Below are positions 13,509 through 42,542 of a stretch of DNA of 64,000 nt, piece by piece. Source of the DNA: a virus. Below the pieces are notes generated by a model. That model had not been told where the DNA came from. It saw only the letters and a program-made list of their open reading frames with translations, and did not search any database. The position numbers and the translations under genes are program-made. Each line of letters opens with the position of its first letter. Position 1 is the first letter of the stretch. The DNA lies in IMG/VR virus record IMGVR_UViG_3300037418_002133, positions 32,001-96,000 of that record, one strand, 5' to 3'.

Positions 13509-13525
13509 GGAATTCCCTAGTCAGC

Positions 13526-19412: not shown

Positions 19413-19712
19413 TTAGTGGAGAGCTTCGCCATCTTCCGGAACTGGATCCGGCGTTGCCATGAAGACGGTAAATCCTTTTGTCGTTGGCGCGATCGTGGCG
19501 CTCCGGTTGCCGTGCCTGGTCGTGGCGATCATGCCGTGTCGCTCCAGCGCGCGCAGCGAACAGGTGATCGCCTGTTTACTGACCGGGCCGTATGACACGC
19601 CGGCACAAAGATCGTTGGTGGTGATCTCTACGCCGGTTGACGTTGCCTCGCAGATCAGCCGCATGATCTCGCGTTGTTTCCGGGAATTGGCAAATTCGTT
19701 TCGCGCCGGCAT
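19413..19712 (-). CDS. Winged-helix DNA-binding protein
   Basis: KQREIM..I...SKQAITCSLRALERHGMI..T..G wHTH pattern. Confidence 0.7.
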   Translation of the reverse strand: MPARNEFANSRKQREIMRLICEATSTGVEITTNDLCAGVSYGPVSKQAITCSLRALERHGMIATTRHGNRSATIAPTTKGFTVFMATPDPVPEDGEALH

Positions 19713-20620
19713 TACTCGCCTCGGAACGGCGCGTTAGGCGCCTGTCGGTCGAATGCGGTAAGGGGAAGACGCTGGGGAATGGTGCCGTGACGATCCGGAT
19801 TGGTCCAGATGCCGTACATTGGCGAAGCCAGCACAATCTGCTGGAGCCCCTTAATGATAGTCCTTTCGGACATGGCGTCAACCCTGCCCTGTCCGCGGTC
19901 GCGATTGTTGCCAGTCTTCTCAAGCGCGGAATGGCGATAGTAGAAGTCCTTGCAGAGCTGCAACAAACGCTCGCGCTCGGCCGGCGGTTTGGCTTGCAGC
20001 TCGGCCAGGATTGCCTCGAAATCCTGCGGACTGCTCTCGAAATGGGTCCGGAAGAACTTCAGCCCGATCTCGTATTTGTTGGCGTTCAACGGGCGCACGA
20101 AGCGAAAGCCCGCCTTCTGGCCGAACAGATTGAACTTCGACATCGAGGACTGGATCTCCATGAAGGTGTTGCCCTCCATGCGCGAGACCAGGTTCATCAT
20201 CCGGTAGCCGCAGCCGATGCCGCGATACATGGTGTCCACGACGAACCGCGAGACCACACGGAAGTTCTTGTTGATGAACTTGTACCGATAGGTGTTGGTG
20301 ATCTTGGTGTCGCCGGCGCCAGGCTTGAGATTCTTGAACACCAGATGCCGCTCCTTGAGCAGCCCCTTCGGGTTGCCGGTGACCAGCACGCCAATGGTCT
20401 CGCCGAACAGCGTCAGTTTCCAGAAATGCGGCCCGATCGGCAGGTTTTCCGCCTTGTAGTGAAGATCGTGCAGCAGATTCCAGTCAGAAATGTCTCCCTT
20501 CTCGACAAACATGCTCTCAAGCAGCGGGAAACAGGGCGCCGGTGCGTCCACACGCTCTATCAGCGTATCATATGCGTCAGCACTCTCGGACGCACCGGTG
20601 AGCTTCTCTGCGAACGGCAT
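19712..20620 (-). CDS. GNAT-fold acyltransferase-like protein
   Basis: LHY; ISRFVVDTMYRGIGCG-type acyl-CoA motif A (VSRFVVDTMYRGIGCG); MSKFN.F..KAGF. Confidence 0.75.
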   Translation of the reverse strand: MPFAEKLTGASESADAYDTLIERVDAPAPCFPLLESMFVEKGDISDWNLLHDLHYKAENLPIGPHFWKLTLFGETIGVLVTGNPKGLLKERHLVFKNLKPGAGDTKITNTYRYKFINKNFRVVSRFVVDTMYRGIGCGYRMMNLVSRMEGNTFMEIQSSMSKFNLFGQKAGFRFVRPLNANKYEIGLKFFRTHFESSPQDFEAILAELQAKPPAERERLLQLCKDFYYRHSALEKTGNNRDRGQGRVDAMSERTIIKGLQQIVLASPMYGIWTNPDRHGTIPQRLPLTAFDRQAPNAPFRGE

Positions 20621-20622: not shown

Positions 20623-20928
20623 TCAGTCGACGATCTGCCAATCCTCGGCGAGAAGATCGGTCTGCGACGCGACCCACGGCACAACATCGCCTTGAGCGGT
20701 CTTCATGTCGATGTGACCGTGATACTGGATCTCGGTGCCTTCCGGGTAGATCCCCAGAAGCGGCGGGCGATTCACCTTGAAGGTCGAGCCACGCACCAGA
20801 AACAGGAACATGCCCTTGCCGTTCCAGCCGGCACGGGCGACGCGCGCTCCATCCTTGATCGCAACGAGGGCGCTGGAAAACGAAAAGCCACCCTGTCTGG
20901 TTCGCTGCGTCAAAACTTCTTCGGTCAT
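20623..20928 (-). CDS. DUF2829/Tad2-like protein (candidate anti-Thoeris signal sponge)
   Basis: F..AL..IK.G.RVAR.GWNGKGMF...PW..SQTDLLAEDW signature. Confidence 0.85.
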   Translation of the reverse strand: MTEEVLTQRTRQGGFSFSSALVAIKDGARVARAGWNGKGMFLFLVRGSTFKVNRPPLLGIYPEGTEIQYHGHIDMKTAQGDVVPWVASQTDLLAEDWQIVD

Positions 20929-21560
20929 TCTGTCTTCTCCAGTTCAACTTTCTCGCGGAAACGCTTTGTCACCTTCAATGAGGCGCCGATCTCATCCGCC
21001 AGATCGGTGTGGGTGGTCGCGACGATCAGGGTCTTGCCGAGACGCCGGGCGGTCTTCTGCATCGAATAGGCGACACACTTCGCGGTGACGCGGTCGAGCA
21101 CGGCGCCGAACTCGTCGGCAACCCAGACGTCGGCGCCCTTGTCCATCAGCATTGCCAGCTTCAGCCGGTAGCGCTGTCCGTCGGAGAGTTCATTCGGCTT
21201 GCGGATATAGATCCAGGCGTCGGAAATGCCGGCCTTCGCCAACAGATCGGCCGCTTCGGTCGTGGTGTCACCAACGCACTCGATCACCGGCTTGTCCGGC
21301 GCCTCTAGCGCGTTCAGATCGGCAACCTTGAGACCCTTCTCGATCATCTGGTCGCGCAATTCGCGCAGCAGCAGCGACTTGCCAGACCCGGATTGACCGG
21401 TGATGTAGACCACGTCGCCCTGCCTGACCTCGACTTCGAGATCGTCGTAGATCACGAAACGCTTGTCCGAGAGACCAAGTCCAAAGGCTTCGGCAACTTC
21501 CAGTACGCGCGGCGTGCGGTCGACCGACGAGCTGAAGGACTTGTTGACGAGGTATTTCAT
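20925..21560 (-). CDS. Stand-alone ABC-family ATPase
   Basis: GQSGSGKS, LSDGQRYR, ADEF, TTH; no membrane partner nearby. Confidence 0.9.
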   Translation of the reverse strand: MKYLVNKSFSSSVDRTPRVLEVAEAFGLGLSDKRFVIYDDLEVEVRQGDVVYITGQSGSGKSLLLRELRDQMIEKGLKVADLNALEAPDKPVIECVGDTTTEAADLLAKAGISDAWIYIRKPNELSDGQRYRLKLAMLMDKGADVWVADEFGAVLDRVTAKCVAYSMQKTARRLGKTLIVATTHTDLADEIGASLKVTKRFREKVELEKTE

Positions 21561-21922
21561 GCGCCGGGATCCTCGGGATCGTCATCGACGCTTTCTTCTT
21601 CCTCAATCTCGGCCAGGCGATCGCGATAACCGTCGATTTCTTCGCGAATTTTCATCTTCACCGAGTCGACCGCAAGATTGACCATCGCCAGTTGCTCGAT
21701 GGAGGTATCCATGCGGCTGACCAGCGCGCAGATCGGATTGTTCTGGTGAAGACCGGCAATAACCAGATGCGTCAGATCACCGGTCTTGATGCGCTCAAGG
21801 ATGTCCTCGCACAGCGCCAGTGATGTCTTGTCGACTTTCGGCTTACTTGCTTCGGTCGGATCGGGCGCGACAAACGCCTTGCGGGTAAAGGCGTTGATGA
21901 CCTTTGGGCTGTCGTCGCTCAT
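21557..21922 (-). CDS. Hypothetical protein
   Basis: Translationally coupled ORF in the operon. Confidence 0.6.
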   Translation of the reverse strand: MSDDSPKVINAFTRKAFVAPDPTEASKPKVDKTSLALCEDILERIKTGDLTHLVIAGLHQNNPICALVSRMDTSIEQLAMVNLAVDSVKMKIREEIDGYRDRLAEIEEEESVDDDPEDPGA

Positions 21923-22581
21923 GCTGCCTGCTCCAATACGAACAGCAGCGCGTCAACGCCGGTCTTGTCGACCTTTCCCTCGATAATGGTGAGCAATTCC
22001 CGGATCTTGCGGCTCTGCTCGACGGTAACGCGCTTGAAACCAAGCGCGTCGGAGACTGGCGCCGCGGAGTGATCGACTTCGGCTTCCTTCGCCGAATTCT
22101 CCTCTTTCTGCTTTTCAACCGCCGTGGTGATGTTATCGACGAACATGCCATCGTCGATATCGGCGAAATCCGAGGTCATTCGGGTGATCTCGCTCTCGTC
22201 GAAGCCGATCGTGTCCATGTCGAAGCCGTCCTCGGCCAGTTCGGTGAGGGCCTGCTGAAGCAATTCGGTGTCGTATTCGGTCGAGGCGACCTGATTGTCC
22301 GAGAGCCGCAAGGCGTCCGCCTCGGCTTCGGTGAGATCGTCGCGCACCACGACGGGAATCTGGGTCCAGCCCAGCGACAATGCGGCGAGCCGGCGCCCAT
22401 GACCGGTAATGATGGTGCCGTCGGGGCGAATGTTCAGAGGGTTGGCGACGCCGAATTTCTGGATCGACTTGGCGAGCTTGGCGACGTGAGCGTCCGGGTG
22501 CTTCTTGGCGTTCTTCGGATGCACGACCAACTTGTCGATCGGCCACAACACAACAGGTCGTTTGGAATCAATTGTCGTCAT
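21919..22581 (-). CDS. ParB/Srx N-terminal domain protein
   Basis: NAKKH, SIQKFG, IITGHGRRLAA, LSDN. Confidence 0.88.
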   Translation of the reverse strand: MTTIDSKRPVVLWPIDKLVVHPKNAKKHPDAHVAKLAKSIQKFGVANPLNIRPDGTIITGHGRRLAALSLGWTQIPVVVRDDLTEAEADALRLSDNQVASTEYDTELLQQALTELAEDGFDMDTIGFDESEITRMTSDFADIDDGMFVDNITTAVEKQKEENSAKEAEVDHSAAPVSDALGFKRVTVEQSRKIRELLTIIEGKVDKTGVDALLFVLEQAA

Positions 22582-22753
22582 CGTCGTTCATTCCTGAATA
22601 AATCGCCATCAATTCGTCGTCGTTGAGTTCGCGATCCTTGAATTTCTGCTCGAAAAACTCGCCAGCGCCGCAGTTTAGGCATCGCCGGGTAATTCGCGTT
22701 TCGCTGAAAAACTTGCAGTCCCGGCATTCCGGATGGCGAGGCTTGACGTACAT
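22568..22753 (-). CDS. Small Cys-rich (CxxC..CxxC) protein
   Basis: CRDC and CLNC; coupled to neighbours. Confidence 0.55.
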   Translation of the reverse strand: MYVKPRHPECRDCKFFSETRITRRCLNCGAGEFFEQKFKDRELNDDELMAIYSGMNDDDDN

Positions 22754-23404
22754 TCAGTCCTCAACGGCTCCGAAAAGCTGATGCACGAGGGCATCGCCGG
22801 CGTTCGTGAGGTCATCCGATGCGTTGAAATTCTGGCGCTTTCGGATCTTGCTGATCAGTTCGGTGATCTTCTCGGCATCGCCGAGTGTCACCTTGAAGCG
22901 CATGATGGTGTGGGTCTTCGGTGCGCGCTCGGGTTTGGGTTCGTCCGGCGCGGGCGCCTCGTCATATCCCGTCAGATCGTCGAGTTCATCGAGCGCTATA
23001 CTAACGGAATTGAAGATATTGTTGATATCGGTCTCAGTGAACGGCAGGAATTCCTTAACATTCGCGCCCTCTTCCATACTCTCCAGCATTTCAGCGAGGC
23101 GAATGGTGTCGTCGGCGCCGTAACGGGCGTTATCAGCGAGCGAAATCTTCTTCGCCTTGTCGTCGTTGATGTCGCCGAGATTGAAGATTGGAACCTGTTT
23201 CAGTCCCGCCGCCTTCGCGGCTTGCCAGCGATGTTCGCCGCCGATGATCTCGTAGGGATGATCCTCATCGTTAGTTTCGCGCACCACGATCGGCTTGAAC
23301 AAGCCAAGCCGGCGGATCGATTCCGCCAGTTTCTCCTCGTTTTCCGGAGAGACGATGTTGATGTTGAAGCTGTTCGGCCGAAGCAGGTCGATATCGACCA
23401 TCAT
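22754..23404 (-). CDS. ParB/Srx N-terminal domain protein
   Basis: PNSFN.N, SIRRLG.FKPIVVR, GGEHRWQAA; start approximate. Confidence 0.88.
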   Translation of the reverse strand: MMVDIDLLRPNSFNINIVSPENEEKLAESIRRLGLFKPIVVRETNDEDHPYEIIGGEHRWQAAKAAGLKQVPIFNLGDINDDKAKKISLADNARYGADDTIRLAEMLESMEEGANVKEFLPFTETDINNIFNSVSIALDELDDLTGYDEAPAPDEPKPERAPKTHTIMRFKVTLGDAEKITELISKIRKRQNFNASDDLTNAGDALVHQLFGAVED

Positions 23405-23486
23405 TTGAACTGGCACCGAAGCGAAAACCTTATATAAGTCAGAACTGACTTTTACATAACCACGAAGATTGGTCCTTTGCAAGCCC

Positions 23487-25079
23487 ATGCCTGAAACCAT
23501 TACCATTGCCAGCAATGCCGTCATCGCCAAGATCATCAACGCCACCAATCCGGTCAAGGATCTGGTGTCGCAATGTCTGAGCTATGTCGTTGAGGGCGCT
23601 GAATTTATGTCGGCGTTCGCAACGTCCGGCTGGGATGGGCGTTCGAGCTTCTTTGCACGGCGCACCTGTACGTTCCCGGCAGGCTTCGTGCATATGGTGC
23701 ATGGCGAACTCAAACGCGCCGGCTACGAGGTTCGCATCGTCAAGCGCCCCAATCCTTTGCCGCTCGGTCCGGAAAATCCGATCGTCGACGAGTTCGGCAA
23801 TGACGATCCCCGCTACGACTTTCAGCCTCGAACGCTGCGCCAGATCGAAAAACACGGGCGCGGCATCGTTCAGGTCGCAACGGGCGGCGGAAAAAGCAAG
23901 ATCGCCAAGCTGATCGCCATGCGTTACGGGCGCCCGACGCTGTTTCTGACCACGCGCGGCGTGCTGATGTACCAGATGAAGGACGCCTTCGAGCAGGATT
24001 GCAAGGTTCGCACCGGTGTCATTGGTGATGGTCACTGGGCGCCGACCAAAGGGTTCAACGTCGGCATGGTGCAGACCCTGGTGTCGCAGCTCGCCGAACC
24101 GGATCTCAACGCGGAGATTCGTGAAGTTCTGCGCCAGAACACCGAGAAGGGCGAGGGTCGAACCAAGGCGCAATGCACGGAACTGGGCAATCAGCGGTTC
24201 ACGCTCAAGACCAAGATTCGCGCCCGTGTCATCAAGTTCCTCGAAATGATGGAAGTGGTGATCGGCGAGGAAGCGCATGAAGCCGGCGGAAACTCCTATT
24301 ACGAGATCCTGAAATACTGCAAAAACGCCAATATCCGGGTTGCCCTGACCGCGACGCCGTTCATGCGCGAGAACATGCTCGACAATATGCGGCTGATGGC
24401 TGCATTCGGGCCGATTTTGATCAAGGTGTCGGAAAAGACGCTGATCGATCGCGGCATTCTGGCAAAGCCCTACTTCATGTATCGCTCGCCGGCGCCGCAT
24501 CCGAAGCTGCGCAAGACCTCGCCCTGGCAACGCGCCTACGAACTGGGTGTGGTCGAAGGGCCGCATCGCAATGCCGATATTGCCGCACTAGCCAAGACCG
24601 CGGCCAATCATGGTCTGTCGGTGCTTATTCTGGTTCAGCGCAAAAAGCACGGCCCCTTTCTGAAGAAGCTGCTGGAATCTCAAGGTTTGCGGGTCAAGCA
24701 AATTCAGGGCGAGAACGACCAGAACGAGCGCAAAAAGGCGCTGAACGATCTCGCGGCCGGACGCATCGACGTTCTGATCGGATCCACCATCGTCGATGTC
24801 GGCGTCGACGTGCCCTCGATCGGCATGGTCATTCTTGCTGGCGCCGGCAAGGCAGAGGTGGCGCTGCGTCAGCGCATCGGCCGCGGAATGCGCGCCAAGA
24901 AGGTTGGCCCGAACGTGGTGTTCATCGTCGATTTTACCGACGAATTGAACAAGCACCTGCGCGAGCACGCGAAACAACGCCGCGCCATCGTCGAAACAAC
25001 CGACGGCTTTGTGCAGGGCATTCTGCCAAAGGGCCAGGATTTTCCCTGGCACCTGTTCGCGAAAAAGAAAGCAGCGTGA
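23487..25079 (+). CDS. Superfamily 2 DNA helicase
   Basis: ATGGGKS, EEAH, LTATP, GVDVP, QRIGRGMR. Confidence 0.92.
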   Translation: MPETITIASNAVIAKIINATNPVKDLVSQCLSYVVEGAEFMSAFATSGWDGRSSFFARRTCTFPAGFVHMVHGELKRAGYEVRIVKRPNPLPLGPENPIVDEFGNDDPRYDFQPRTLRQIEKHGRGIVQVATGGGKSKIAKLIAMRYGRPTLFLTTRGVLMYQMKDAFEQDCKVRTGVIGDGHWAPTKGFNVGMVQTLVSQLAEPDLNAEIREVLRQNTEKGEGRTKAQCTELGNQRFTLKTKIRARVIKFLEMMEVVIGEEAHEAGGNSYYEILKYCKNANIRVALTATPFMRENMLDNMRLMAAFGPILIKVSEKTLIDRGILAKPYFMYRSPAPHPKLRKTSPWQRAYELGVVEGPHRNADIAALAKTAANHGLSVLILVQRKKHGPFLKKLLESQGLRVKQIQGENDQNERKKALNDLAAGRIDVLIGSTIVDVGVDVPSIGMVILAGAGKAEVALRQRIGRGMRAKKVGPNVVFIVDFTDELNKHLREHAKQRRAIVETTDGFVQGILPKGQDFPWHLFAKKKAA

Positions 25080-28671: not shown

Positions 28672-29084
28672 CCTGCGACAAGGTTAGGGCAATATTCCTA
28701 TTGGTGCGGGGATCCGGATGATGTATCCGGGAGTTGGCATGGGTCAATTCTTGTGACAAGGTTAGGACGGAAAAGCTGTCGAGGGGCCAGAAGGCAATGC
28801 CTTCGCTGCATCGCACAAAAACCTAAGACATCGCATCTGTTGCAATTATGCAACACACGACGCGTCCCGCGAAACGCGTGACATTTCCGCAACACAGCGT
28901 TTCTTGCGATTCTGTGTTTGTGCAGCGCACAATAAAATAAACACGATTTCGCATTGCAACATGCTATGCGCAAAATGCATAACACGATTTAGTTAAGTAG
29001 TGATAATTATGTCACACGTGCTGCTGCAACAAATCTGTAGCATGATCAAGTCACGAATTGTTACACTCTGTAACATCATGTGAT

Positions 29085-29113
29085 TTGTTCGCGTTGCTGT
29101 AACACGTTATAAC
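29085..29113 (+). promoter_or_regulatory. Putative sigma70 promoter of the GG/CC-free cassette
   Basis: TTGTTC-17 bp-TATAAC about 50 bp upstream of ATG 29161. Confidence 0.4.
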
Positions 29114-29160
29114 TTAGTCACGTTAGCAATGACGCTAACACTACAGAGTGAGAAACGACG

Positions 29161-29778
29161 ATGACGAAAGTTAATGACAAGATCGCGAACTACGTTGCAG
29201 AACTCAACAGCGCGCTTGACGCTCGCGCTTCGTATGAACACGACAAGAGCGCTGCGAACGACTCGATTCAGACGTGCATCGCAGCGCTTCGTAAGAGCGT
29301 CACACACGTCGATATTGCGAGCGTGCTACTCTCATGCGACGTCGATTCAAACTTCATCAATCGCAGCGAGCGTTCGAATAATCGTTATAACGTCTACGCT
29401 GCACAGAAAGTCGACAACGTCGCGCGCGCTGTCAAAAGCGTTGCAGAACTGAATCACTATTCGCTTGCGATCTTGCGCGTTGCGCTCGCTGTCGAAAAGA
29501 TCGACTCTAAGCTGTCGCACAAAGACGCTGTAGCAGCGTGCAGCGCGTCTGTGAAGCACAGCGACGCGAAGCGCGAATCAATCATCAAGTCGCTACGCTA
29601 CGCAAAGCACGTCGCTGCAAATACAGCGTCAACGCAATCGTCGTCGTCGATTAACGCGCTTCAAACGTGTCACATTCTGAGCGAAGCGCGCGATGCTGCG
29701 AACAACATCGTCTACAGCGTCAATCGCGAGAGCGAAGCGTTCAAGACGCTCGCGAAGAGATACGAACTCGCGATCTGA
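29161..29778 (+). CDS. Gly/Pro/Trp-free protein, paralogue of 32079-32888 (putative DNA-binding)
   Basis: Aligns by eye with the 32079 product (FINRS..RYNVYA; TASTQSSS..ALQT); gene has no GG or CC. Confidence 0.8.
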   Translation: MTKVNDKIANYVAELNSALDARASYEHDKSAANDSIQTCIAALRKSVTHVDIASVLLSCDVDSNFINRSERSNNRYNVYAAQKVDNVARAVKSVAELNHYSLAILRVALAVEKIDSKLSHKDAVAACSASVKHSDAKRESIIKSLRYAKHVAANTASTQSSSSINALQTCHILSEARDAANNIVYSVNRESEAFKTLAKRYELAI

Positions 29779-29859
29779 CAACGCAATGCAGAGTGACGCT
29801 TCACAGCGTCACTCTGTAACATCACTTAATCAAGTCACCGCAAACACAGAGCTAGAACA

Positions 29860-30045
29860 ATGCAGCATGAGAAACGACTAATGAAGCAACGCGAATCAGC
29901 GCGCGTCGAAAAGTACAAGCGCGCGTTTGACTGCGACTCTGTTGACGCTGATTATCTATTCGACGACGTCGCACGCGACTGTGACGCGACGTTAGCAGCG
30001 ATCGAACTGCGAGAATCGATCACGCGCTACGCGATAGCGCACTAG
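29860..30045 (+). CDS. Small Gly/Pro/Trp-free hypothetical protein
   Basis: 61 aa ORF within the island, followed by a hairpin. Confidence 0.5.
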   Translation: MQHEKRLMKQRESARVEKYKRAFDCDSVDADYLFDDVARDCDATLAAIELRESITRYAIAH

Positions 30046-30380
30046 ACGCGTGACATAGTCGAAAGTCTATAGACGAAAGTTTATTAGACTTTCGACTGTG
30101 ACATTTAAGCCTCACTGTTGCTCTGAAGCCACTGTGGTATGCCCGCCACAGTGGCATTTTTGCCACAGGCGAACCCCATGGGGAGGGTAAGGCAGACCTG
30201 AAATCCCAAGGATTTCAAGCGGTCTGCCGATCCCATGGATCCCACCGGTTCCTAATCCCATACCTAGTGACCGGTTCCCATGCCCATCCATGGCGATCGG
30301 TTCCGGACGCCAAAACCCATGGCAGGCTTCCTTGCCGGACAGGGCACCCATAGCAGGCGCCCTCTCCTTTTGGCTGCTGG

Positions 30381-30866: not shown

Positions 30867-31123
30867 TTTCGATCTCCGTGTTTGCTCAACACAAAGATCG
30901 TCGCATATCGCCTTGTGGGATGCGGTCGGGCGTATAAGGCGAGTTTATACGGCCTGGCGTTTACGGACCGGCCTGGCGATGGAAGACGGCCTGGCCGAGG
31001 ATGACCGGACCGGCCTGAAGCCCATGGAGCGCCATGCCTGCCCATGGAGGACCGAGGGATCTCTAAGGGCGCGTAAAACCCTATAGATATATAAATATAT
31101 CTATAGGGTTGGGATGCGAACGG

Positions 31124-31390
31124 CTACGCGAGGCAAAGCTCGCTGGACTGACGGGCTGCTTCTTCGATGCACAGCGCGACGAGGTGCTGGGCGTTGAAGG
31201 CTTTCTCGTGGAGCATCGCTTCGTTGATCGCGGGATCGATCTTGCTGATGGTCATTTCGTTGGTGTCGTAGTTGTAGGACGACGTGAACAGCACGGTATC
31301 TTTGTAGATCGCGCTGAAGGCGCATTCGGGGTTCATCGGGTGCGCGTCGTTGGAAAGCTCGATCTTGATGGTCTTGAGGGTGCTTTGCAT
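31124..31390 (-). CDS. Hypothetical early protein lacking Gly and Trp
   Basis: Promoter motif upstream; GAGAG RBS. Confidence 0.65.
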   Translation of the reverse strand: MQSTLKTIKIELSNDAHPMNPECAFSAIYKDTVLFTSSYNYDTNEMTISKIDPAINEAMLHEKAFNAQHLVALCIEEAARQSSELCLA

Positions 31391-31453
31391 GTTAGCTCTC
31401 GTTTGTGTGAACGTGAGAACTATCTCACGTTCACTTTTGGGATGCGAACGGGC

Positions 31454-31744
31454 TCAGACGGTCATGTCGAAGGAGATCTTCATGGTCTCGTCGACGATCA
31501 GCTTGCGGAGGGTTTCACTGGAGTTGCAGCGGTAGTAGACGCTGTCTCCCGCAGCAGCTTGCGCGTCGTTGGGATCGAACTCGCTGTCATGGAGCTGCGT
31601 GACGCGCACAGCGAAGCATTTGGTGTCGTCTTTGGCGATCGCGCACGCTTCGATGACGGTCCTTTGGTTCATGACGGAGAAGAAGCGCTCGCCTAAGTCT
31701 TGCGACATGAGGGAATCGAAAGTGGTTTTGTCGATCTGGTGCAT
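31454..31744 (-). CDS. Hypothetical early protein
   Basis: Start MHQIDK at 31744, downstream of operator and TATACT. Confidence 0.65.
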   Translation of the reverse strand: MHQIDKTTFDSLMSQDLGERFFSVMNQRTVIEACAIAKDDTKCFAVRVTQLHDSEFDPNDAQAAAGDSVYYRCNSSETLRKLIVDETMKISFDMTV

Positions 31745-32042
31745 GTTTTGCTCTCGCTGTGAAAATAAGTCAGTTCTGACATACGACAGTATAGCTAGGA
31801 ATGCGAGCGGCGGCTCGTGGTGCGTCCGTTGGGGTATCGAGCTGGGTCTGTAGCTTAGGAGCGCTAAGGACGCACCATGGGGCTTCCCTAGCGATTTCCC
31901 ATGGGAAGCCATGGTTCGCCTCGGGACACCACGGCCGCGCCCTCTCCAAAAATCCGCCTTGGTTCGCCAATCGGTCGGTCCCATGGACCCCACCGGTTCC
32001 AGATACCAAGGATGCCCCATGGTTCACAATTCGCCACAACGA

Positions 32043-32078: not shown

Positions 32079-32888
32079 TTACGCTGCCTTCGCGAGCACC
32101 GCTTCGAGCTTGGCGACCGCAGGGTGATCGGTCAGCTCGAACGTCGGGTTCTTGTGCGACCCCGAGCGCTTGACGATCCCGAGCGTTTCGAGCGCCTGCA
32201 TCGTCGAGGAGGCTTGGGTCGGCGCCGTCGACGCTCCGACAGTGTGGCGGATCAGGATCGCCTTCACCGCGCCTTCGACGCGGATCTTGTCGGAGGCAGC
32301 GGCTTTCGCCAACTCGCCGGTGAACGTGATCCCAGCTTTGCGACAGGCGAACAGCGAGCGCATGATGGCGAAATTGATCTTGTTGGTGATTTCGCCACCA
32401 CTGAGACCGACGATCGCATCGGCGAGCTTGCCGAACGCGTAGACGTTGTAGCGCTTGCCATCGTGTACGCTGCGGTTGACGAACGCCTCGGTGACACCGC
32501 ACGCCAACAGCACCGCACCCGCTCGCGTCGAGGACAACTGGGCGCGCGCCTTCTTGAGCGTCTTCTGGATGTTGTCGTTGCCGTTCGCGAGTTCGAAGTC
32601 CGCACGCTCGTCGACGGCATTCGCCATCTTGACCGTCGCTTCGATTTTCGCCTCATCGCTGATGTTCGCCATCATGTCGTCGAAGCTCTGGATTTCGCCA
32701 TCGGCCTGGACTTCGAGGACCGGGTCGATATTCGCCTCATCCTCGATCAGCGCCTCATCGATCGCCTCAAGCTCGACGATTGCCTCGGCCGACGCCTCAT
32801 CGAGCATGTCGAGCGCCATGAACTGCACGGCGTTGCTGGTCTCGGTTTCGAGCGCGGCGATCTGAGTCTTCGTGGTCTTCTTTGCCAT
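32079..32888 (-). CDS. Protein with acidic N-terminus and putative winged-helix C-terminus
   Basis: D/E-rich first ~80 aa; STAPTQASSTMQALETLGIV helix followed by beta-wing-like segment. Confidence 0.75.
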   Translation of the reverse strand: MAKKTTKTQIAALETETSNAVQFMALDMLDEASAEAIVELEAIDEALIEDEANIDPVLEVQADGEIQSFDDMMANISDEAKIEATVKMANAVDERADFELANGNDNIQKTLKKARAQLSSTRAGAVLLACGVTEAFVNRSVHDGKRYNVYAFGKLADAIVGLSGGEITNKINFAIMRSLFACRKAGITFTGELAKAAASDKIRVEGAVKAILIRHTVGASTAPTQASSTMQALETLGIVKRSGSHKNPTFELTDHPAVAKLEAVLAKAA

Positions 32889-33944
32889 TGTCGTTCTCTC
32901 GTTTCGTTGTCGTCGCGTCATTGCGACAATCGAACTATCTCAGAACGAGGCAAGGGAAGCGGTCGGCAAAACAGTAGGCGAATAGGCAAGGTGTAGGCGA
33001 AAATGGGTGAGGCGAACCGCGGGCCGGACCATGGATTTTCGCCACCTTTCCGCTAAGAGAATCTATCTACTAGATATATATCTTATATAGTGAAGAGACG
33101 GCTTTTTTCGCAGACACATTCCGGACGTCTAAAAGGTTCGCCATGGAGACTCAAGGGGCTCCGGTAGCGACTGATTTTACAGGGAATTCAGACCCCGGCC
33201 GTGGAATGCCATGGGAAGTTATGGCGAACCTCGGCGACGCCATGGGTGTGTAGGCGAAAAGCCCTTGGTTTATAGGCGAAAATCGTGGGGAGAGCATGAG
33301 GCGAATTGGAATGCCACGGCGCGCTCTCTAATCTACCTTCTTCACCTCCTCTATTCGTACCCTCTCCCTCTCTTCAGACCCCTCACCTCTTCACCACTGC
33401 TCTCTAGGCTCTCTCGCTCTGTAGGTTCTCTCTACGGTTCTTGAGAGTTTTAGGTTGAGGTCTTGGTGCTATTCGCTTTGGTGCTGGCTCTGACCGTTCC
33501 CTTTGTTTGATATATCGGTTGAGGTCTCTCTACCGGTTCCTGAAAAGTTGATGGTTGTTGTTCTGCTGGTTTTGGGGATTGTTGACCCTCGTGTTCTGCT
33601 CTCTGAAAATTTTGCTTTGGGGTCTCTCTTGGGGAGTGCTGATTTTGGGTTCTGAAATCGCTTGTTTTGCTGGGAAAGTTGAGTGTCAACCTTTTGCATT
33701 TTCGAGGTGGGGTTGACGAAACGTTGACAAAAAGTAAACCAGAACTGACTTATACGGTAATCTGGTAGTGATATCGGGATTTGGGAGGTTTACTTCTGGT
33801 TCACATGTAAACCATTTTGAGAGCTGGAATTGGTATTGGTTTGAGAAAATCAGGGATTTTTGACGGGTTTTCAGCCGTTTGGTTTAGATCTTGGTTTACA
33901 TGGTTGACAAACCATGGGGCCGGAATGGTCTGAAAGAGGGGCGT

Positions 33945-36900
33945 TTAAGCCCTCTCCTCTACCTTAATATCAGCCCTTGGCCTTGGCGTCGTCATAGCCG
34001 CGGTTGTAGTGAGCCTTCTGCTCGTCGGTCCAGTGGCCCCAGGGGCTCCTTGCCCAGCCGTAGGCGTGGTGTGTCTGGCCGAGGCGATAGCAGTCCTGGT
34101 CGGTCGGGTTGTCCTGGATCCGACGGTCGTTCTCGGCGTAGTTGATTTCAGCCATAGTGAACTCCTCACCCCCTTTCTAGCAGACATCGGCTCGATCGCG
34201 AAGCCGTCCGAGATTATCTGGGTCGTGGTCTCGACGATTTGGATGCCCGCCTCGTTGAGATCGCCATCATAAGCTGCGCCACCTCCACCAGGATCAAGAA
34301 GAGACGTTAGCGCATCCTCGACGTGTTCGACGACATAGGTGCGATCTTCGGTGCAGTCGCGCATGTGTTCGGTTGCGACCTTGAGGAGCTTCTTCTCGTC
34401 GAAGACCTCGATCTCCATTTCCAGGCGGTAGGTCTTTTTGGTCATGTGTCGTTCTCCATCAGTACCTTGGTGACCAGCGCTGTTAAGGCCAGGATCCCGA
34501 GGATGGCGCCGGCGTGCGTTATGACGATCATCTAGCCCTCACAGCGACGGCGCTTTCCGATGTCAGGTCTGGATCGAAATTCCACATCGAATTGACGTGG
34601 GTGAGAAACTCACGGCAAGCAGCTTCATCGGGCAAACGATAGTGGCTTGAGATACCGTTGAGGTGGCGCATATCTTTCGGCTCCATAACGGTATCGTCAG
34701 GAAGAAGGGTGATTTCGCCGAGGTGATATTTCTGTCCGTCTCCTCGTTCGCAGGCGAGGATTTGGACAAAATAGCGTCGGTTCACGAGCGCCTGATAGCG
34801 CTCGCAACAATCACAGTCGAGGTCGGCCGGGTTTGCGGTGAAATATCGGGAGATATTCATGTCAGCTTACTCCGATCGCGATTTCTTCGATGTTGTCCAT
34901 CCGGATCCAGGTGTCAGGTGTATCGTCGTCCTCGATCCTCAACAGTAGCCATTCCTCGCTGTGTGCGACGACCGTGGCGCCGTTGAAGGTTCGGCCGGAT
35001 TTGAGGATGAGGACATCGAGCCAGTAAGCCGTGCCCGCTTCGTCGAGCGTGGTCATCCTGGCGTTTGGTGATGCTTGGGTCATCTTTCCCTTACTCCGCG
35101 ATCATATCGGGCTCGAAATCGCCGATATAGGCGAACGAGATTGTGTGGGAATGAATATCGAGATGACAGTCGATGTAGACCTCGCCCTCGACGTCCCAGC
35201 CGCGCACCTGAAGCACGTCGAGACTGAACGCCGTGGGAAGTCGATCGTGGTTCGGCATCGATTCGATCAGCGCCAGAAGACCGTCGACTCTCGCCTTGTC
35301 CGTGATCTCCTCGTGATCGTAGTCGTAGTCTTCCGGGACGAATTGGTCGAAAAGGTTCTCGTAGTCGCCAAGAGTTCGCATTGTCAGATCACCCCTGCAT
35401 ATATTCGGAGACGGCGTCTTCCGCGCTCTCGACGCATTCGCGGATCGTGAGGAAGTGCTCTCCGAACTCCTTCATCATGTTCTTTCGAACGTCGCGCGCC
35501 ACGCGCAGAATGAGCTTTTGCTTGTCCGATTTAACCATTGCGACTCTCGCTCTCGTTGTGTTAGAGAGAATATCGCATATATTTCAATGGTTTACTACTG
35601 GCGATGCTATGTCCCAGTAGCTTTCCGCGCAAGGCCAGCTATATTCAGAACAGCAGGAGCGACGTTGATGGCGACGATGGTGACCGAGGTTTACGATGCG
35701 CTGAAATCCGCTGGCGTGGCGGAGGACAAGGCGCGTTCGGCTGCTGTCGCCATGGCGAACTATGAGCCGCGGTTTGCCGGCCTCGCCTCTGACCTGAACC
35801 TGGTGAAATGGATGGTCGGCTTCAATCTGGCGCTGACGGTCGCGGTGCTGTTCAAGCTGTTTCACTGACCTTGGTGCGGAGTTCTTCCAGCGCCTCGACA
35901 CCAATCTTGTTCAGTTTGCCATTCGCCGCGAGTTCGACCAGACGCAGTTCCTGAATCGTCAGATCATTGCCATCGTGAGACTTCTGAAGGATCTCGATGG
36001 CAAAATTCTGCTGAACAATGCGCTCCTCGATCCATTTGCTATCCGTAGGTAGGGAAAGACGCTCCCTTTCCTGTTGAGTAAAGCGGGTGGCGCTGGGAAA
36101 GCTCGTCCAGCCCAGTTCGTTCGACCAGAAACCATCGTCATCATCGGTCGCTTGAATCACCCAGGTCATAGTCCTCTCCCGATCGCCATCAGTTCGTCGA
36201 TGATGTTGTCCGTTTGTTGCCAGCCGATGGATTCGCGCCAATCAGGCCAGACGGTCGCGAACCATGTCCGCATCTGTCGTTGGTTTAAATCGCCTGGGTT
36301 GCCATGCTTGGCAACGAGGTTCTCGGCGATTTCGCGGCTCTCGGTCATGTCGCACCGCCAGTTTTGACGGTGACTGACAGAGCCGCCTCCAACTCCTTGC
36401 ACCGCTCCGCAAGCTGGCGCGGCGTCAGGCCGGTTTCATGGGCGACGGTGAAGGCTTCCGCGATCAGATTGGCATTCGCGACGGCTTCGCGCTGACTTAC
36501 AGCGGCATCCCATTCGTAAGGATAAAACCCACCTGGACGAACAATGGTCTTATCTTCATCGTCGACGGAATTGACGGATAACGGCCAACCGCTCCATTGA
36601 CCGCCATCATCACAGATAAAGACGCTGGCAGGCCCCTGCGTGAACATTCTGCGGCTTTCGGTCATTGCGATTGAGCCTTCTGATAGGCGTTCCAGGCGTC
36701 AACCGCGCGGCCGGTATCGCCTGCTTCATGCATCCAGTGACGACGTTCCTGATCGCTTAGATTGTTCCACCATTTCATCCCAGCCTCGTCGTTTGCGCGA
36801 TCTCGATCTGGCGTTTTACCAGACTTTAGAAACTCGTTGAGGTCGCGGCCGACGGACGTTTCACCGGGACACGGCGGTATGTCGCGCGGCGCCACTTCAT

Positions 36901-38640: not shown

Positions 38641-40067
38641 GATCTGTTGTCTCCTGTTTGCGATGATTAATCGTCGCACAGTCGCGTCAGGATTGCGGTT
38701 GGGAGAGCGCTCTGGGCTTCAGGTAGACACGCACGCGATAGGCCGTGTTTTTTGCCTTCATCATGCCGGTCAACAGGCACTTCGATATAAACTTGCCGTG
38801 GACTGTGCATCCGTAGCCATTGTGATAACTATGGATATAACCGTCGGGCTCCCCTCGCCTGCCCATCGCCTCGTCGACCGTGAGCCAGACGTGACCTTCG
38901 AAGCACGACGGAATCGGATCGCCATTCGGGAAGAACGGCTTCTCATAGACCGTGGCGCGTTCGATGCCGGCCCAGACGTCCGATAGATCGTTCCAGTAGA
39001 GCCGCCCTTCCGGCGCCCGCTGGTTTGCCATGACGTAGCTCATGCCTCGTCTCCAGCCTGTATATTTTCCTCTACAAGATCCACGACCGGTTCCTCATCC
39101 AAGAACCCGTGAATTGTCATCGAAGGCGAAAGACTGACTTGTGGAAGATCTGGATCATCGCACTTCAAATCCGAGATCAGATCGCATCCGCCGGCATTGT
39201 CGACCTCGATATCGTCAAACTGGATTGTCTTGGCTAGTTCGATCGCTTCCGCTTTTGAGTTCGCCTTGATGTAGGCGGTCGCAACAACCTCGATGTCGAT
39301 GGAGTAAAGGTTCATGTTGAATGCTCCTGCGAAATTTGAATAAGAGTTGCACGACGCGCACTGGATAGCTTCCGGCGGCGTCAGGGTGTTGCGAGCGTTT
39401 CTAAGCGTCACAGAGCGTCGGGTTTGAGAGCGTGTCTCTTCACACAGCGAGACGACGCAAACGCATAGAAACGCAAACCTGAGCGTCTACGCAGCGCTCC
39501 CGTCGCTCTTTCGCTCGTGAAGTAGTTCGAGAAACTGCGGAAGGTCGGATTTCTTGCCGTCGGGCAGCGGTTTGAACCCCACGGAAATGCTGACCAGGGT
39601 GTCGATCGGTGTCATCAGCCAGGTGTTGTCGATGGTGTTGCGCCCGTAGATGTCCGTCGGTGTAACCCGCACCGAGTCGATGCGGAAAACGCTGCCGTTC
39701 TCCAGGTTCAGATCGATGAAGGAAATTGCGTCTTGGTTCTCAGGATTGAGAAGGTGGAGCGCGCTAATCAGATTGCGAAACCCCTGCCTCATGGCGTCGT
39801 CACCCGCTCGACGTGCTTGGGATCCGAGGCGATCAAGGCGGCGCCGACGCACCGCATCATACTGCGTCGGTCGATCGGCCGCATATCGCTCCAAGCCGGC
39901 ACAGGATTGACCCGGTCTGGCGTCCGCCGGGTGAACTCACGGCGTAATTCGCGGACAAAGGCTTCGGTTGAGACGGCGAGCGTCGTTGCATCAGGAGTCG
40001 GCATGTTACCTCATAAGTCAGAACTGACTTAATTATCGTGCGAAAACAAACGGTTGTCGAATGGTGT

Positions 40068-40451: not shown

Positions 40452-40802
40452 CTTAGTGAGTGGTTCCCACAATCTCGGGGTCTTTGGCCATCTGGAATAG
40501 AATATCCATGATCGCCGGCACCTTCAACGCCACAGAGAGCGCAACCAGTGTTTCACCAATCTTGAGTTGTTCGGGGGTGAACTGAGAGGGATCCGAGACG
40601 TTGTAGGTATTGAAAATCTGGACCGATCCGTCGGCCTTGATCACCAGGCCAGCATCGCCATCGGCGATCGGAGAGACAGGAGGTACGAGTTCTTCGATGG
40701 AAAATGGCACGTCAGATCCTTTGAACGTTAACTGCTGCGATACGCACAGTATAGCGTCAGAGCGTTGGCGAGCGCACGGTTATGCCAAGGTCTGCGAATC
40801 AA

Positions 40803-41970: not shown

Positions 41971-42542
41971 CGCGTTCTCGCTAAATCGCTAAATCGTGAA
42001 TTAACGATAGCGCGTCGCACGTCGGGATGCGGCTGGCGATTGCACCCGTCGAACGGCAATCGCTAAAGAGCGAAATCGCTAAATAGCTCGTTCGCTAAAA
42101 CGCGATTAGAGCGTCACTGAGCGTCGGATCGATTGAGACGTACAATGCAGCGTTAAGACGACGACAGCGCATCAGCGCGCGTTCCTGCTCGATCCCGGTG
42201 ATGCTGTAGATCGCGAAATAGCGTTTTCGCTAAATCGCGATCTAACAAAGCGGTGAATAATAGTTCATTTCACGTGGAACGAATTAACGGAACTTTAAAC
42301 AGTTCCACCCTTCGCCTGATAGGCGGGGCAACCCTCGCAGTCCGAGGGGTATTTCAACAAATGGCCGGCGAGGGCGTTGCGCGAGAGCCACCTGGGCACG
42401 TTGAGCAACTGGTCCGGCGCCTCATCCATTGCCCAGCCACACAGCATCGGACCCTCGATCTGGCGCTGATCACCGGTGAGGGCGTCCACCTCGACAGCAT
42501 TCTCGGCGCGCTGGGCGAAACGACAGGGGATCATGACGGATC

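Follow-up and report, generated by a model that had tools for sequence, protein, structure and literature searches.

A transcription unit purged of GG and CC dinucleotides in phage-plasmids of soil alphaproteobacteria

INTRODUCTION

Why would a phage-plasmid keep more than a kilobase of coding and non-coding DNA without a single GG dinucleotide and with almost no CC? The question is raised by a 64,000-nt stretch of a virus record (IMG/VR IMGVR_UViG_3300037418_002133, positions 32,001 to 96,000), which we call the window. An earlier note on this DNA had described the stretch as a pioneer cassette, perhaps at the first-injected end of a phage-plasmid, that must work when GG and CC sites elsewhere are chemically modified or targeted. 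The element indeed belongs to a phage-plasmid family with genomes of ~117 kb whose hosts are soil alphaproteobacteria. Here, we describe the extent, anatomy and conservation of the purge, and weigh the mechanisms that could maintain it.

RESULTS

Extent of the purge

The island and its surroundings contain the following features.

28788-28835, plus strand: boundary motif GAAGGCA...N...CTAAGACATCG, conserved among relatives, at the start of the GG-free zone
28794-30135, unstranded: GG-free zone (the island), with CC nearly gone at 28888-30109 (dinucleotide scan, shuffles)
28838-29100, plus strand: operator-like repeats TTGCAATTATGCAA, GTGCAGCGCAC and TAACACG...TTAAGT copies (repeat search)
about 28953, plus strand: candidate sigma70-type promoter TTGCAA-N17-GCATAA
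28979-29007, plus strand: candidate sigma70-type promoter ATAACA-17-GATAAT
29145-29152, plus strand: GG-less ribosome-binding region AGAGTGAG (family consensus ACAGAGAGA)
29161-29778, plus strand: IslA gene, 205 aa, Gly/Pro/Trp-free, with a helical N-terminal part and a C-terminal winged helix predicted by a structure model
29789-29816, plus strand: perfect 12-bp hairpin between the two genes
29881-30045, plus strand: small acidic cargo gene without Gly, Pro or Trp codons, 54 aa (ATG at 29881) or 61 aa (from 29860)
30051-30103, unstranded: two motif-like TAGACTTTCGACT elements in inverted orientation, of which the minus-strand one stands at the start of a minus-strand GG-free zone
30128-30165, plus strand: intrinsic terminator, 11-bp stem and T run, with the first post-island GG in its stem
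31080-31548, minus strand: second tier, with a GG-free sense strand and normal CC, including an 88-aa gene at 31124-31390
32079-32921, minus strand: long paralogue of IslA, 280 aa, acidic N-terminus, normal composition (48 GG, 42 CC)
33403-33413, minus strand: 11-mer GAGAGCCTAGA, present once in the window

The 1342 bp of the island hold 0 GG and 8 CC, compared with ~165 GG+CC expected. The flanking GGs start at 28793 and 30136, which bears out the GG-free stretch reported before (28795-30135) and sets the gap between GGs at 1343 bp; across the whole 116,086-bp genome, window included, the runner-up gap is only 151 bp. On recount, CC is absent from 28888 to 29837, a single intergenic CC stands at 29838 and the following one at 30110, again as described, while the remaining CCs of the island lie within 28800-28887 (five) and at 30129 (one). 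Tens of each dinucleotide had been anticipated, and the local base composition (G+C 49.6%, compared with 57%) predicts 73 GG and 92 CC; in 5000 shuffles, the sum of GG and CC averaged 165 +/- 10 and never fell below 127. The depletion is limited to G and C runs: AA and TT occur at normal frequency, and both CG (156 observed versus 82 expected) and GC (138 observed versus 82 expected) are in excess.

We calculated a codon-aware expectation for the 205-aa gene, given its protein sequence and the codon usage of the same genome, and found 0 GG and 0 CC compared with 22 and 33 expected (z about -6), indicating that synonymous sites and codon junctions are purged too. The non-coding DNA of the island is likewise purged. 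Because the island is free of GG and CC, its proteins are without glycine, proline and tryptophan, and translation of both ORFs confirmed their absence. The clade of the long paralogue has normal Gly and Pro; the normal composition ascribed to this gene was correct, while its extent, given before as 32079-32888, is corrected to 32079-32921. Taken together, the purge of non-coding DNA, synonymous sites and codon junctions and the normal Gly and Pro of the paralogue clade place the constraint on the nucleic acid and not on the protein, as the earlier note had argued for DNA. Depletion of Gly, Pro and Trp tRNAs was rejected as an explanation since the purge extends to codon junctions and to non-coding DNA.

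The purge is real. The island is identical in contigs from four other metagenome runs and diverged orthologous loci have islands of their own, which rules out an assembly artefact.

Anatomy of the island

The island is a single transcription unit that comprises the boundary motif, the gene of a 205-aa protein with a predicted winged helix, variable small cargo genes and a terminator. With its sharp edges it acts as a self-contained early unit, in line with the idea of a pioneer cassette. The boundary motif (family consensus GGCATCCCC-N~17-CTAAGAC(T/A)TCG) is also found at the island edge in loci L016, L022, L012, L011 and L014 and in RHph_X66 and B1VFA; it represents a distal promoter or else an element adjoining the DNA terminus. 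Across loci, the GG-free zone starts at the conserved motif or within the promoter spacer and stops at terminators; at most other loci, a clear sigma70-like CTTGAC-N17-CTATTC lies 40-80 nt 5' of the ATG. The same GAGAAACGAC motif precedes the IslA ORF and the ATG at 29881, and the cargo gene therefore more likely starts at this ATG and encodes 54 aa instead of the 61 aa assigned to it earlier. The content of the cargo slot differs among relatives. We found no convincing invertase-type inverted repeats flanking the island, and a search of Rfam gave two sub-threshold chance matches only.

IslA has no sequence-level match in Pfam or PDB, and the island proteins matched no Pfam, PHROGs or PDB family and only unnamed clusters in the ESM Atlas. 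Over residues 90-203, the structure model of IslA (pLDDT 96) can be superposed on many chains with a winged helix, a fold of the MarR/ArsR/linker-histone type that combines a three-helix bundle with a beta-hairpin wing; the matches have Z 7-7.8 and rmsd 2-3 A, where a Z below 8 can mean a common arrangement. Judging from this model, IslA is likely a winged-helix DNA-binding protein. It is a probable autoregulator.

Conservation and the strand rule

When 13 orthologous islands were pooled (14.9 kb), they contained 1 GG compared with 824 expected, and 74 CC compared with 1038 expected. Orthologues whose proteins share 27-80% identity still carry islands, and their reading frames are intact. Most short-form homologues are free of Gly, Pro and Trp; they fall into dozens of 50%-identity clusters and include proteins with as little as 41% identity. 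A few lineages are relaxed, and these regained CC before GG. Their IslA recognition helix, TQSSSSINAL, is unchanged, and we consequently dismissed the idea that IslA binds a different DNA sequence there.

The absence of GG from the sense strand is the strictest and best conserved rule. In the second tier, the 88-aa gene has 0 sense GG compared with 7.4 expected and 25 CC compared with 18 expected, and the adjacent 96-aa gene (31454-31744) has just 3 GG. At locus L014, five consecutive genes lack Gly and Trp and the ban covers GGV/BCC only, with ACC present 18 times, which fits an enzyme with drifting specificity. At L002, L009 and L016, the purge is near-equal on both strands. The orientation of the cassette relative to its neighbours flips between lineages with the purge kept, and in pAMS5a-type genomes the conserved motif is antisense to the gene. 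The purged strand follows the sense of transcription and not the distance from a DNA end, which eliminated Cas3 or RecBCD directionality from the end as an explanation. Other short palindromes are abundant in the pooled islands (GCGC 330, CGCG 296 and TCGA 146), indicating that there is no general site avoidance. The strand-specific part of this pattern makes it improbable that simple readers of double-stranded DNA, for example through PAMs or palindromic restriction sites, are the full explanation.

Comparing gene contents, a GHKL ATPase (847 aa), its 397-aa partner and a few small genes occur only in purged genomes (this one and pAMS5a), and two methyltransferases, TcmP and a HEPN/Toprim protein only in relaxed M. 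oryzae. We dropped this contrast as an explanation since a single relaxed clade is not independent evidence. We also found a class of phage promoters, CC-N9-CC-N11/12-GCTATA, with 5 exact matches compared with 0.02 expected and 13 matches to a looser pattern. Avoidance of these promoters was set aside as a cause of the purge, as the motif is too specific for a total ban on CC.

Position of the island in packaged DNA

For two cultured relatives, the published direct terminal repeats measure 3605 bp (B1VFA) and 3939 bp (V1VFA-S; PMC12509600). Only one place in B1VFA, with left and right edges at 39631-39809 and 43235-43413, maps to 3939 +/- 2 bp in V1VFA-S; the fitting positions number 179 of the 94,990 testable B1VFA positions, and the fit is 1 bp off. 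The B1VFA island lies at 42318-43283, so that the repeat thus placed would end 0-150 bp past the island. We carried this position over to the window by synteny and by the conserved 11-mer at 33403-33413, which is unique also in B1VFA and V1VFA-S and there lies at the other predicted edge of the terminal repeat. Since the published repeat sizes fit one place and that place ends at the island, and as the alignment of relatives indicates, the packaged DNA probably has the island at its tip; the suggestion of a first-injected end thereby gains indirect support for its terminal location. The outermost ~130 bp of the putative B1VFA repeat are rich in GG and CC, and the purged part makes up only ~1 kb of a repeat of ~3.6-4.7 kb, the rest of which, including the paralogue, is unpurged.

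A predicted DNA-marking module

Beside the terminase, the window carries a group of genes that may mark DNA.

19712-20611, minus strand: GNAT-fold protein (structure model), the acetyltransferase half of a COG2401-type pair and a candidate DNA-marking enzyme
20925-21560, minus strand: ABC-type ATPase, partner of the GNAT protein (PF00005, ABC_tran, E 1.6e-12)
21919-23557, minus strand: two genes with ParB_N domains, at 21919-22581 and 22754-23557, which share this operon and stand upstream of the terminase

The GNAT protein (299 aa) has no Pfam match by sequence, and a source names its homologues 'ABC-type ATPase with predicted acetyltransferase domain'. In Foldseek, the structure model of the protein (pLDDT 80) matches acetyltransferases (E 1.5e-4, probability 1.0), among them the cytidine N4-acetyltransferases NAT10 and TmcA as well as phage Mu Mom. 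Across four genomes it is 67-73% identical, compared with 58-68% for TerL. When the 10-kb flanks of this gene were inspected in 35 viral contigs, an island stood at the expected distance in about half of them; in the others, it can fall outside the flank. Pfam scans of the examined phage proteins revealed no C5- or N4/N6-methyltransferase. Acylation of a DNA base has been predicted for an ABC ATPase paired with a GNAT protein (PMC7824862), enzymes that modify phage DNA are activated by ParB homologues (PMC13229309), Nat10 enzymes work at CCG (PMC12478401) and DNA methyltransferases specific for CC exist (10.1101/2022.06.10.495194). On the basis of domain and structure matches, we predict that the module is a nucleobase-acylating system. 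Relaxed M. oryzae retains the GNAT and ABC pair intact (72% identical), and loss of the module therefore does not explain relaxation.

DISCUSSION

Possible explanations of the purge

Some factor must read the GG/CC step at the start of infection. Our best explanation, offered tentatively and with somewhat less than an even chance of being right, is that the cassette avoids a CC-directed DNA mark of the phage's own and that the island is a pre-early operon. The island would lie just inside one end of the long direct terminal repeat and, from this proposed position, would belong to the DNA that enters a new cell first. Host RNA polymerase would read it from promoter to terminator, and its products would be a winged-helix DNA-binding protein, likely an autoregulator, and variable small cargo proteins. 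The ABC ATPase, the GNAT acyltransferase and the two ParB-like proteins would form a packaging-linked marking system beside the terminase, by which the cytosines of CC in virion DNA would come to carry an acyl mark. Selection would remove CC from the template strand, and with it GG from the sense strand; within the core unit, it would remove CC from both strands. A cassette without target sites would then be the sole unmarked part of the incoming genome, allowing immediate readout by host polymerase and hiding it from sensors of the mark, while for slightly later genes a clean template strand would suffice. The terminal position, the mark, its CC specificity and its effect on transcription are what we infer. 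In its most explicit form, every CC (or BCC) cytosine would be acyl-marked by a NAT10/Mom-like ATPase-GNAT-ParB machine, marked DNA would be unreadable or conditionally readable, and the mark-free tip operon would boot the infection; this full version is doubtful.

Several points count against such a mark. We know of no DNA acylation or methylation that blocks bacterial RNA polymerase, and N4-acetyl-C retains its pairing with G. The purge does not extend to replication and other early functions, so the model must also provide a way of switching on the remaining marked genome, and the purge of both strands in the core needs an extra assumption, for example convergent transcription or a requirement for unmarked duplex. 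The intact module of M. oryzae, the GG- and CC-rich outermost ~130 bp and a terminal position derived from two lengths also weigh against it.

Instead of DNA, the constraint could act on RNA, with GG in single-stranded RNA being cut or chemically blocked at the start of infection so that only GG-free messages survive. Possible agents are an RNase of a host abortive-infection or toxin system, an enzyme that modifies RNA, and a host-shutoff RNase of the phage. This account, which is possible though not probable, fits three observations: the rule on sense-strand GG is stricter and better conserved than any other; early genes nearby are purged of sense GG alone and keep every CC context; and the zone spans promoter to terminator, with the first later GGs in hairpin stems. 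There are parallels for short words in mRNA, namely the ACA-less and GCU-less messages that escape MazF and MqsR, T4 RegB at GGAG and CmdT on GA in mRNA, and relatives encode the RNA ligase RtcB and tRNA genes. To account for the purge of CC, the core unit would also have to be transcribed antisense and the antisense RNA would have to survive; such transcription is predicted, and it agrees with motif-like start elements on both strands of the window's island and with the antisense motif of pAMS5a-type genomes. The RNA-level account is harder to reconcile with lineages purged near-equally on both strands (L002, L009 and L016), and at some loci the purge reaches hundreds of bp upstream of the proximal promoter, which fits only if the distal motif is a promoter. 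To our knowledge there is no GG-specific RNase or RNA modifier, and no sequence-specific RNase or RNA modifier was recognised among ~40 phage proteins scanned.

A terminal stretch could also be shaped by host DNA defences, because it enters before its own products protect or admit the remaining genome and must avoid GG and CC sites, whether these are read as CC or NGG PAMs, by GG/CC restriction or phosphorothioate-linked systems, or by a short-word nuclease. T5-like phages are hit by R-M, CRISPR and Ssp only via sites in the first-step-transfer repeat (PMC10644984), and the putative place of the island at the end of the terminal repeat, its purge on both strands in the core, the hairpin- and repeat-rich inner boundary that could serve as an injection stop, and the variable small cargo beside an HTH gene, which resembles anti-defence loci, would all suit this explanation. 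However, a double-strand reader fails on the sense-only purge of the neighbours and on the return of CC before GG in relaxed lineages, and it leaves the 74:1 imbalance of CC over GG unexplained. GCGC, CGCG and TCGA are still abundant in the islands, and the remaining terminal repeat, paralogue included, is unpurged. In favour of PAM avoidance, genome-wide PAM depletion against type I-F has reportedly been seen in Pseudomonas phages. CRISPR types with GG or CC PAMs are not known to be typical of these hosts. We regard escape from host DNA defence as unlikely.

No sequence-reading enzyme would be needed if the DNA tip had a physical or structural requirement in packaging, ejection or end processing, or for excluding G-quadruplexes, i-motifs or R-loops. 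The likely terminal position and the restriction of the effect to G and C runs, with normal AA and TT, are compatible with this. One GG has no large mechanical effect, which sits poorly with the extreme strictness of the purge, and the outermost ~130 bp are GG- and CC-rich, the second tier is strand-specific, one lineage bans the word GGV, and cassettes inverted between lineages are still purged; a physical need is thus very improbable. We give hardly any credence to non-adaptive origins, be it an assembly artefact, local mutation that destroys GG and CC, or a need for Gly/Pro/Trp-free proteins, for which the lower G+C content of the island might speak. Independent runs give the identical sequence, orthologues keep islands at 27-80% protein identity with frames intact, and codon junctions and non-coding DNA are purged. 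The deamination products TC, CT, GA and AG are not enriched, whereas CG and GC are, and APOBEC-like hypermutation was excluded on these products and the intact frames.

Overall, the interpretation in the earlier note is partly supported. The strictness of sense GG, the neighbours purged on one strand, the GGV-only lineage and the relaxed lineages are features it had not foreseen.

Relation to known systems

The element resembles T5 and BF23 as a ~120-kb siphovirus with long direct terminal repeats, and its small, first-expressed gene set inside the repeat would correspond to their first-step-transfer DNA. In T5-like phages, DNA-targeting defences act only through sites in the terminal stretch, and such sites are selected against (PMC10644984). 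Unlike in T5, a two-letter step is purged instead of 4-8-bp sites, at the loss of three amino acids; only ~1 kb of the repeat is purged, with a strand-specific second tier, and the element is also a plasmid prophage. The island genes have no homology to the T5 pre-early genes A1, A2 and dmp and no Pfam or PHROG family. As for two-step entry, the sequence alone points to the inverted repeats at 30051-30103 and the hairpins as a candidate injection stop.

Whole messages without a short word, all-or-none immunity, a strand-specific rule and a Shine-Dalgarno without GG are shared with escape from MazF (ACA), MqsR (GCU) and T4 RegB (GGAG). Here, in contrast, the word has two letters, no cognate RNase was found among the ~40 scanned phage proteins, and the core unit is purged on the other strand too, also in possibly untranscribed DNA. 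The module shares its ATPase and GNAT pair and the matching fold with the COG2401-type ABC-GNAT systems predicted by Iyer and Aravind (PMC7824862), Mu Mom and NAT10/TmcA; it sits with ParB-like genes beside packaging genes, and the Nat10 word CCG contains CC. Unlike in the COG2401 type, ATPase and GNAT are separate genes, and we infer the link between module and island.

A conserved small DNA-binding regulator beside fast-changing small genes is typical of acr-aca operons and plasmid leading regions, and early expression from first-entering DNA, as proposed here, would be a further common trait. The regulator gene comes first in this operon, unlike in acr-aca operons, and the island matched no Acr, Aca or anti-defence family in Pfam or PHROGs. 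We know of no acr-aca type or leading-region locus that is dinucleotide-purged, nor of a site-free island described in chlorella viruses. That a bare CC step can be read on DNA by viral enzymes is illustrated by M.CviPII/Nt.CviPII and M.CviQIX of chlorella viruses (10.1101/2022.06.10.495194).

Significance

A complete and long-kept ban on a dinucleotide far exceeds known avoidance of restriction sites or PAMs, and this ban is strong enough that, in hundreds of lineages, a protein family does without three amino acids. It follows that a strong reader of GG/CC must be active within minutes of the start of infection. Once found, the reader would be a new player in phage-host conflict, whether a new base mark by a widespread module of ABC, GNAT and ParB proteins, a two-letter RNA-targeting enzyme or a two-letter defence. 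The family includes the cultured Rhizobium phages B1VFA, V1VFA-S and RHph_X66, which makes the question directly testable. If true, an acyl mark on CC would represent a DNA base modification of a new type, providing a built-in epigenetic switch between virion and plasmid at the cost of a 17-amino-acid alphabet. The cassette is also a natural case of functional proteins without Gly, Pro and Trp, and the purge offers a simple sequence signature for the first-expressed genes and genome ends of uncultured phages.

The island is purged of GG and CC at the nucleic-acid level

The window is part of one contig of 116,086 bp, and across this whole genome the GG gap at the island (1343 bp; the previous GG starts at 28793 and the following GG at 30136) is followed in length by a gap of 151 bp. 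No CC stands between 28888 and 29837; there is a single one at 29838, and the next is at 30110. Local composition (49.6% G+C) predicts 73 GG and 92 CC, and the summed count of GG and CC in 5000 shuffles was 165 +/- 10 with a minimum of 127, as compared to 8 in the island, where CG and GC are raised almost twofold. The data bear out the purge that the earlier note had claimed from reading the sequence.

We calculated a codon-aware expectation by drawing synonymous codons from the genome's own usage while keeping the 205-aa protein sequence fixed. Because this sampling predicts 22 GG and 33 CC in the 205-aa gene and neither is observed (0 GG and 0 CC), the purge is not due to missing Gly, Pro and Trp alone. 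It also holds at synonymous positions, at codon junctions and in the flanking 367 bp upstream and 357 bp downstream, which supports the claim of a constraint on DNA rather than protein, here stated as a nucleic-acid-level constraint. The island sequence is identical in contigs of four further metagenome runs, which contradicts an assembly artefact, one of the outcomes that the note had named as fatal to its reading.

Anatomy of the island operon

The island is a single transcription unit. Most loci have an alphaproteobacterial sigma70-type promoter (CTTGAC-N17-CTATTC) 40–80 nt 5′ of the start codon, followed by a ribosome-binding stretch without GG, ACAGAGAGA. The last GG falls within the promoter spacer in two loci; elsewhere the GG-free zone begins further upstream at a conserved element. 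The window has the following features at and around the island.

28678-28690 and 28756-28768: direct repeat GACAAGGTTAGG
28788-28835: conserved boundary element GGCATCCCC-N~17-CTAAGAC(T/A)TCG
30051-30103: second inverted pair of boundary-like elements TAGACTTTCG, at the start of the minus-strand GG-free zone
30128-30165: intrinsic terminator, the unit's end, with the first GG within its stem
30170-30360, 31875-32020 and 33040-33290 (-): CCCATGG arrays, 4–5 copies at ~40–50 bp spacing

The boundary element is found at the ParA-proximal island edge, including in distant members such as the Rhizobium phages. The position and orientation of the element with respect to the ParA operon are constant; the gene cassette is co-directional with it in the window and B1VFA, and inverted in pAMS5a and in two other relatives' loci, L011 and L014. 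The GACAAGGTTAGG repeat lies just beyond the left island edge, in a stretch expected by synteny to hold the virion DNA end. The CCCATGG arrays border the island and the long paralogue (280 aa), and the same word touches the island edge in loci L002 and L011; the arrays may be a centromere or other protein-binding sites beside the ParA operon.

In the model of the 205-aa protein (pLDDT 96), the N-terminal part is helical and the C-terminal part forms a putative winged helix that matches linker histones and MarR-type regulators (Z up to 7.8), and the invariant NTASTQSSSSINALQ stretch lies on its putative recognition helix. The region upstream of the gene is full of operator-like repeats. The small cargo genes downstream are variable (54 aa in the window, 126 aa in pAMS5a, 85 aa in V1VFA-S, and 138 and 231 aa in L014), all follow the purge, and no known family was found for them.

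The purge is conserved, with scattered relaxations

One search with the 205-aa protein returned 70 homologues (41–79% identity), almost all without Gly, Pro and Trp, and a profile search gave 374 cluster representatives. Short-form members (<=262 aa) are mostly free of these residues, and the long-paralogue clade has ~4% Gly and ~4% Pro. In the tree, the Gly/Pro/Trp-free state fills the short clade, with several relaxations scattered through it.

Of 20 orthologous genes, 13 lack GG altogether, and the GG-free zones span 870–1700 bp. The earlier note had held that orthologues of normal GG/CC content would speak against it, and a few lineages have relaxed the purge; in these, CC is back at its normal level while sense GG is still depleted. 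The gene holds 13–18 GG and 45–53 CC in the relaxed M. oryzae clade, and 5 GG and 32 CC in relaxed locus L018, whose protein is 70% identical to the window's. The pAMS5a island (41% protein identity) is GG-free over 1706 bp and CC-free over 1531 bp, the sole such gap in 117.7 kb. Across 13 pooled islands (14.9 kb), GG occurs once versus 824 expected and CC 74 times versus 1038 expected, and no other word is avoided there to a comparable degree. The Rhizobium-phage island proteins have diverged beyond the reach of tblastn; the islands are present nonetheless.

RHph_X66 6536-7486: island
B1VFA 42318-43283: island
V1VFA-S 23613-24964: island

The relatives are ~117–122-kb siphovirus-like phage-plasmids of Hyphomicrobiales: plasmids or contigs (Methylobacterium pAMS5a, an M. 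oryzae plasmid, a Faunimonas contig, and Shinella, Rhizobium and Sinorhizobium plasmids) and the cultured Rhizobium phages B1VFA, V1VFA-S and RHph_X66. They encode RepC, ParA/ParB, DnaE, DnaB, primase, RecA, a sigma-like factor and a complete virion gene set. Further features are as follows.

Window 40750-40779, 44890-44920, 57554-57583, 62362-62391 (-); 35614-35643 (+): phage promoter class, ~CCGNNCGCTTTCCGCG-N10-GCTATA
Window 49157-52887 (-): GHKL-type ATPase (HATPase_c_3), 847 aa, and 397-aa partner
B1VFA 44310-44547 and 10203-16080; RHph_X66 8717-8965: tRNA genes and, in B1VFA, RtcB and NAD-salvage genes

The promoter class, of which the sites above are examples, occurs 13 times genome-wide (5 exact matches versus 0.02 expected) and is followed by GG/CC-free stretches of 25–50 nt (control median 10); the phage's sigma-like factor probably helps to read it. 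The GHKL pair is kept in both purged genomes compared and missing from the relaxed M. oryzae plasmid, which has in its place two methyltransferase genes, TcmP and a HEPN/Toprim-associated protein. In the cultured relatives, tRNA genes lie ~1 kb outside the island (Met, Asn and one with anticodon CCA, called a pseudo-tRNA in the B1VFA annotation and tRNA-Trp in that of RHph_X66), and B1VFA encodes RtcB RNA ligase and NadM/NAMPT NAD-salvage genes. These genes hint that RNA- and NAD-targeting defences matter to these phage-plasmids.

Strand rules differ between the island and its neighbours

The strictest rule is the absence of GG on the sense strand, and the tolerated CCs lie mostly in the 5′ non-coding part and at the far 3′ end of islands. 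A second tier consists of the small early genes next to the island, in which the purge affects one strand alone. The window's second-tier unit, 31548-31080 (-), has no GG on its sense strand, and an 88-aa second-tier gene has 0 GG versus 7.4 expected and 25 CC, in every context, versus 18 expected. Locus L014 has a run of five Gly/Trp-free genes that retain Pro. Because the core island of this locus (2.1 kb) excludes GGV/BCC from both strands yet tolerates ACC (18 occurrences), the banned word varies by lineage.

31445-31462 and 31115-31130 (-): element GCC(C)GTTCGCATCCCAA, after the stop codons of both second-tier genes

The island boundary motif likewise has GCATCCC as its upstream half.

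The island lies near an inferred terminal-repeat end

According to their genome announcement, B1VFA and V1VFA-S DNA ends at fixed positions and carries direct terminal repeats, 3605 bp long in B1VFA and 3939 bp long in V1VFA-S (PMC12509600). We aligned both complete genomes and tested each 3605-bp stretch of B1VFA for a counterpart of 3939 +/- 2 bp in V1VFA-S. The sole fit in B1VFA places the left end at 39631-39809 and the right end at 43235-43413 (179 of 94,990 testable positions); the fitted V1VFA-S length is 3940, 1 bp off, and this indirect placement rests on the two published lengths and assumed homologous boundaries. Therefore, the repeat would end 0–150 bp past the B1VFA island and boundary motif. 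The difference in repeat length comes nearly all from a 332-bp insertion just 3′ of the island gene in V1VFA-S. The island gene points inward from the inferred repeat end, and the long paralogue and second-tier genes occupy the remainder. At the opposite inferred edge lies the 11-mer GAGAGCCTAGA, unique in B1VFA and V1VFA-S; the window has a single copy at the syntenic position, 33413 (-).

The B1VFA/V1VFA-S alignment diverges exactly at 43413. Contigs from three independent metagenome runs end at near-identical spots just outside the window's island (~28705-28740 and ~30245), which could be mosaic junctions or strain variants at the inferred repeat edge.

At such a position, the island cassette would resemble the pre-early, first-step-transfer DNA of T5-like phages, in which R-M, CRISPR and Ssp defences act only via sites within the terminal repeat (PMC10644984). 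We consider it likely that a selected, nucleic-acid-level ban on GG and CC acts in an early operon located in the terminal repeat, probably at its end.

Possible readers of GG and CC

A scan of ~40 phage proteins revealed no obviously linked methyltransferase, transglycosylase or nuclease. The best candidate for a GG/CC reader is the terminase-upstream operon of two ParB_N proteins, an ABC-type ATPase and a 299-aa protein, whose homologues are labelled 'ABC-type ATPase with predicted acetyltransferase domain' by their sources. The ABC and 299-aa pair is 67–73% identical across the window, pAMS5a, the M. oryzae plasmid and B1VFA, exceeding the large terminase. The 299-aa model (pLDDT 80) matches GNAT acyltransferases (probability 1.0), including the cytidine N4-acetyltransferases NAT10 and TmcA and phage Mu Mom. 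For ABC+GNAT pairs, acylation of a base in DNA has been predicted (PMC7824862). On duplex DNA, phage enzymes that modify DNA are activated by ParB homologues (PMC13229309), CCG is a site of action of Nat10 enzymes (PMC12478401) and viral DNA methyltransferases specific for CC exist (10.1101/2022.06.10.495194). One further gene lies inside the operon; it is present in pAMS5a and was not found in the M. oryzae plasmid.

20623-20928 (-): Tad2-like (Thoeris anti-defence 2) domain protein, PF11195, E 1.8e-25

The purge could be caused by the phage's own, hypothetical CC-directed DNA mark, a reading to which we give somewhat less than an even chance. A cytosine mark aimed at CC would be added during packaging, and would account for the word CC/GG and its drift (BCC in L014), for avoidance in first-read genes only and for strictness on the template strand (sense GG). 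Counting against it, the relaxed M. oryzae lineage has the module intact, the base marks described so far are not known to halt RNA polymerase, and the proposal gives no route for activating the marked rest of the genome. Alternatively, though this is rather doubtful, GG could be read in RNA. Such a reader, with parallels in MazF, MqsR, RegB and CmdT, matches the sense-strand rule, the one-strand second tier and the span from promoter to terminator no worse than the phage's own mark, but it requires a hypothetical RNA enzyme with a two-letter target, and antisense transcription, which is predicted.

A host defence that reads double-stranded DNA, through a PAM or restriction site by the logic of T5, is unlikely, slightly more so than an RNA reader: the terminal position and the both-strand core purge fit it, whereas the one-strand second tier, the return of CC before GG in relaxed lineages and the abundance of other palindromes do not. 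The small likelihood that remains is shared by causes outside those considered, a structural explanation (poorly supported and very improbable) and a non-adaptive one (as poorly supported and scarcely credible).

Full-text searching found no description of such a GG/CC-free island in the literature. The logic of keeping first-entering DNA clear of target sites is already known; what is new is its form, with a two-letter ban, the loss of three amino acids, two strand tiers and a lineage-specific word.
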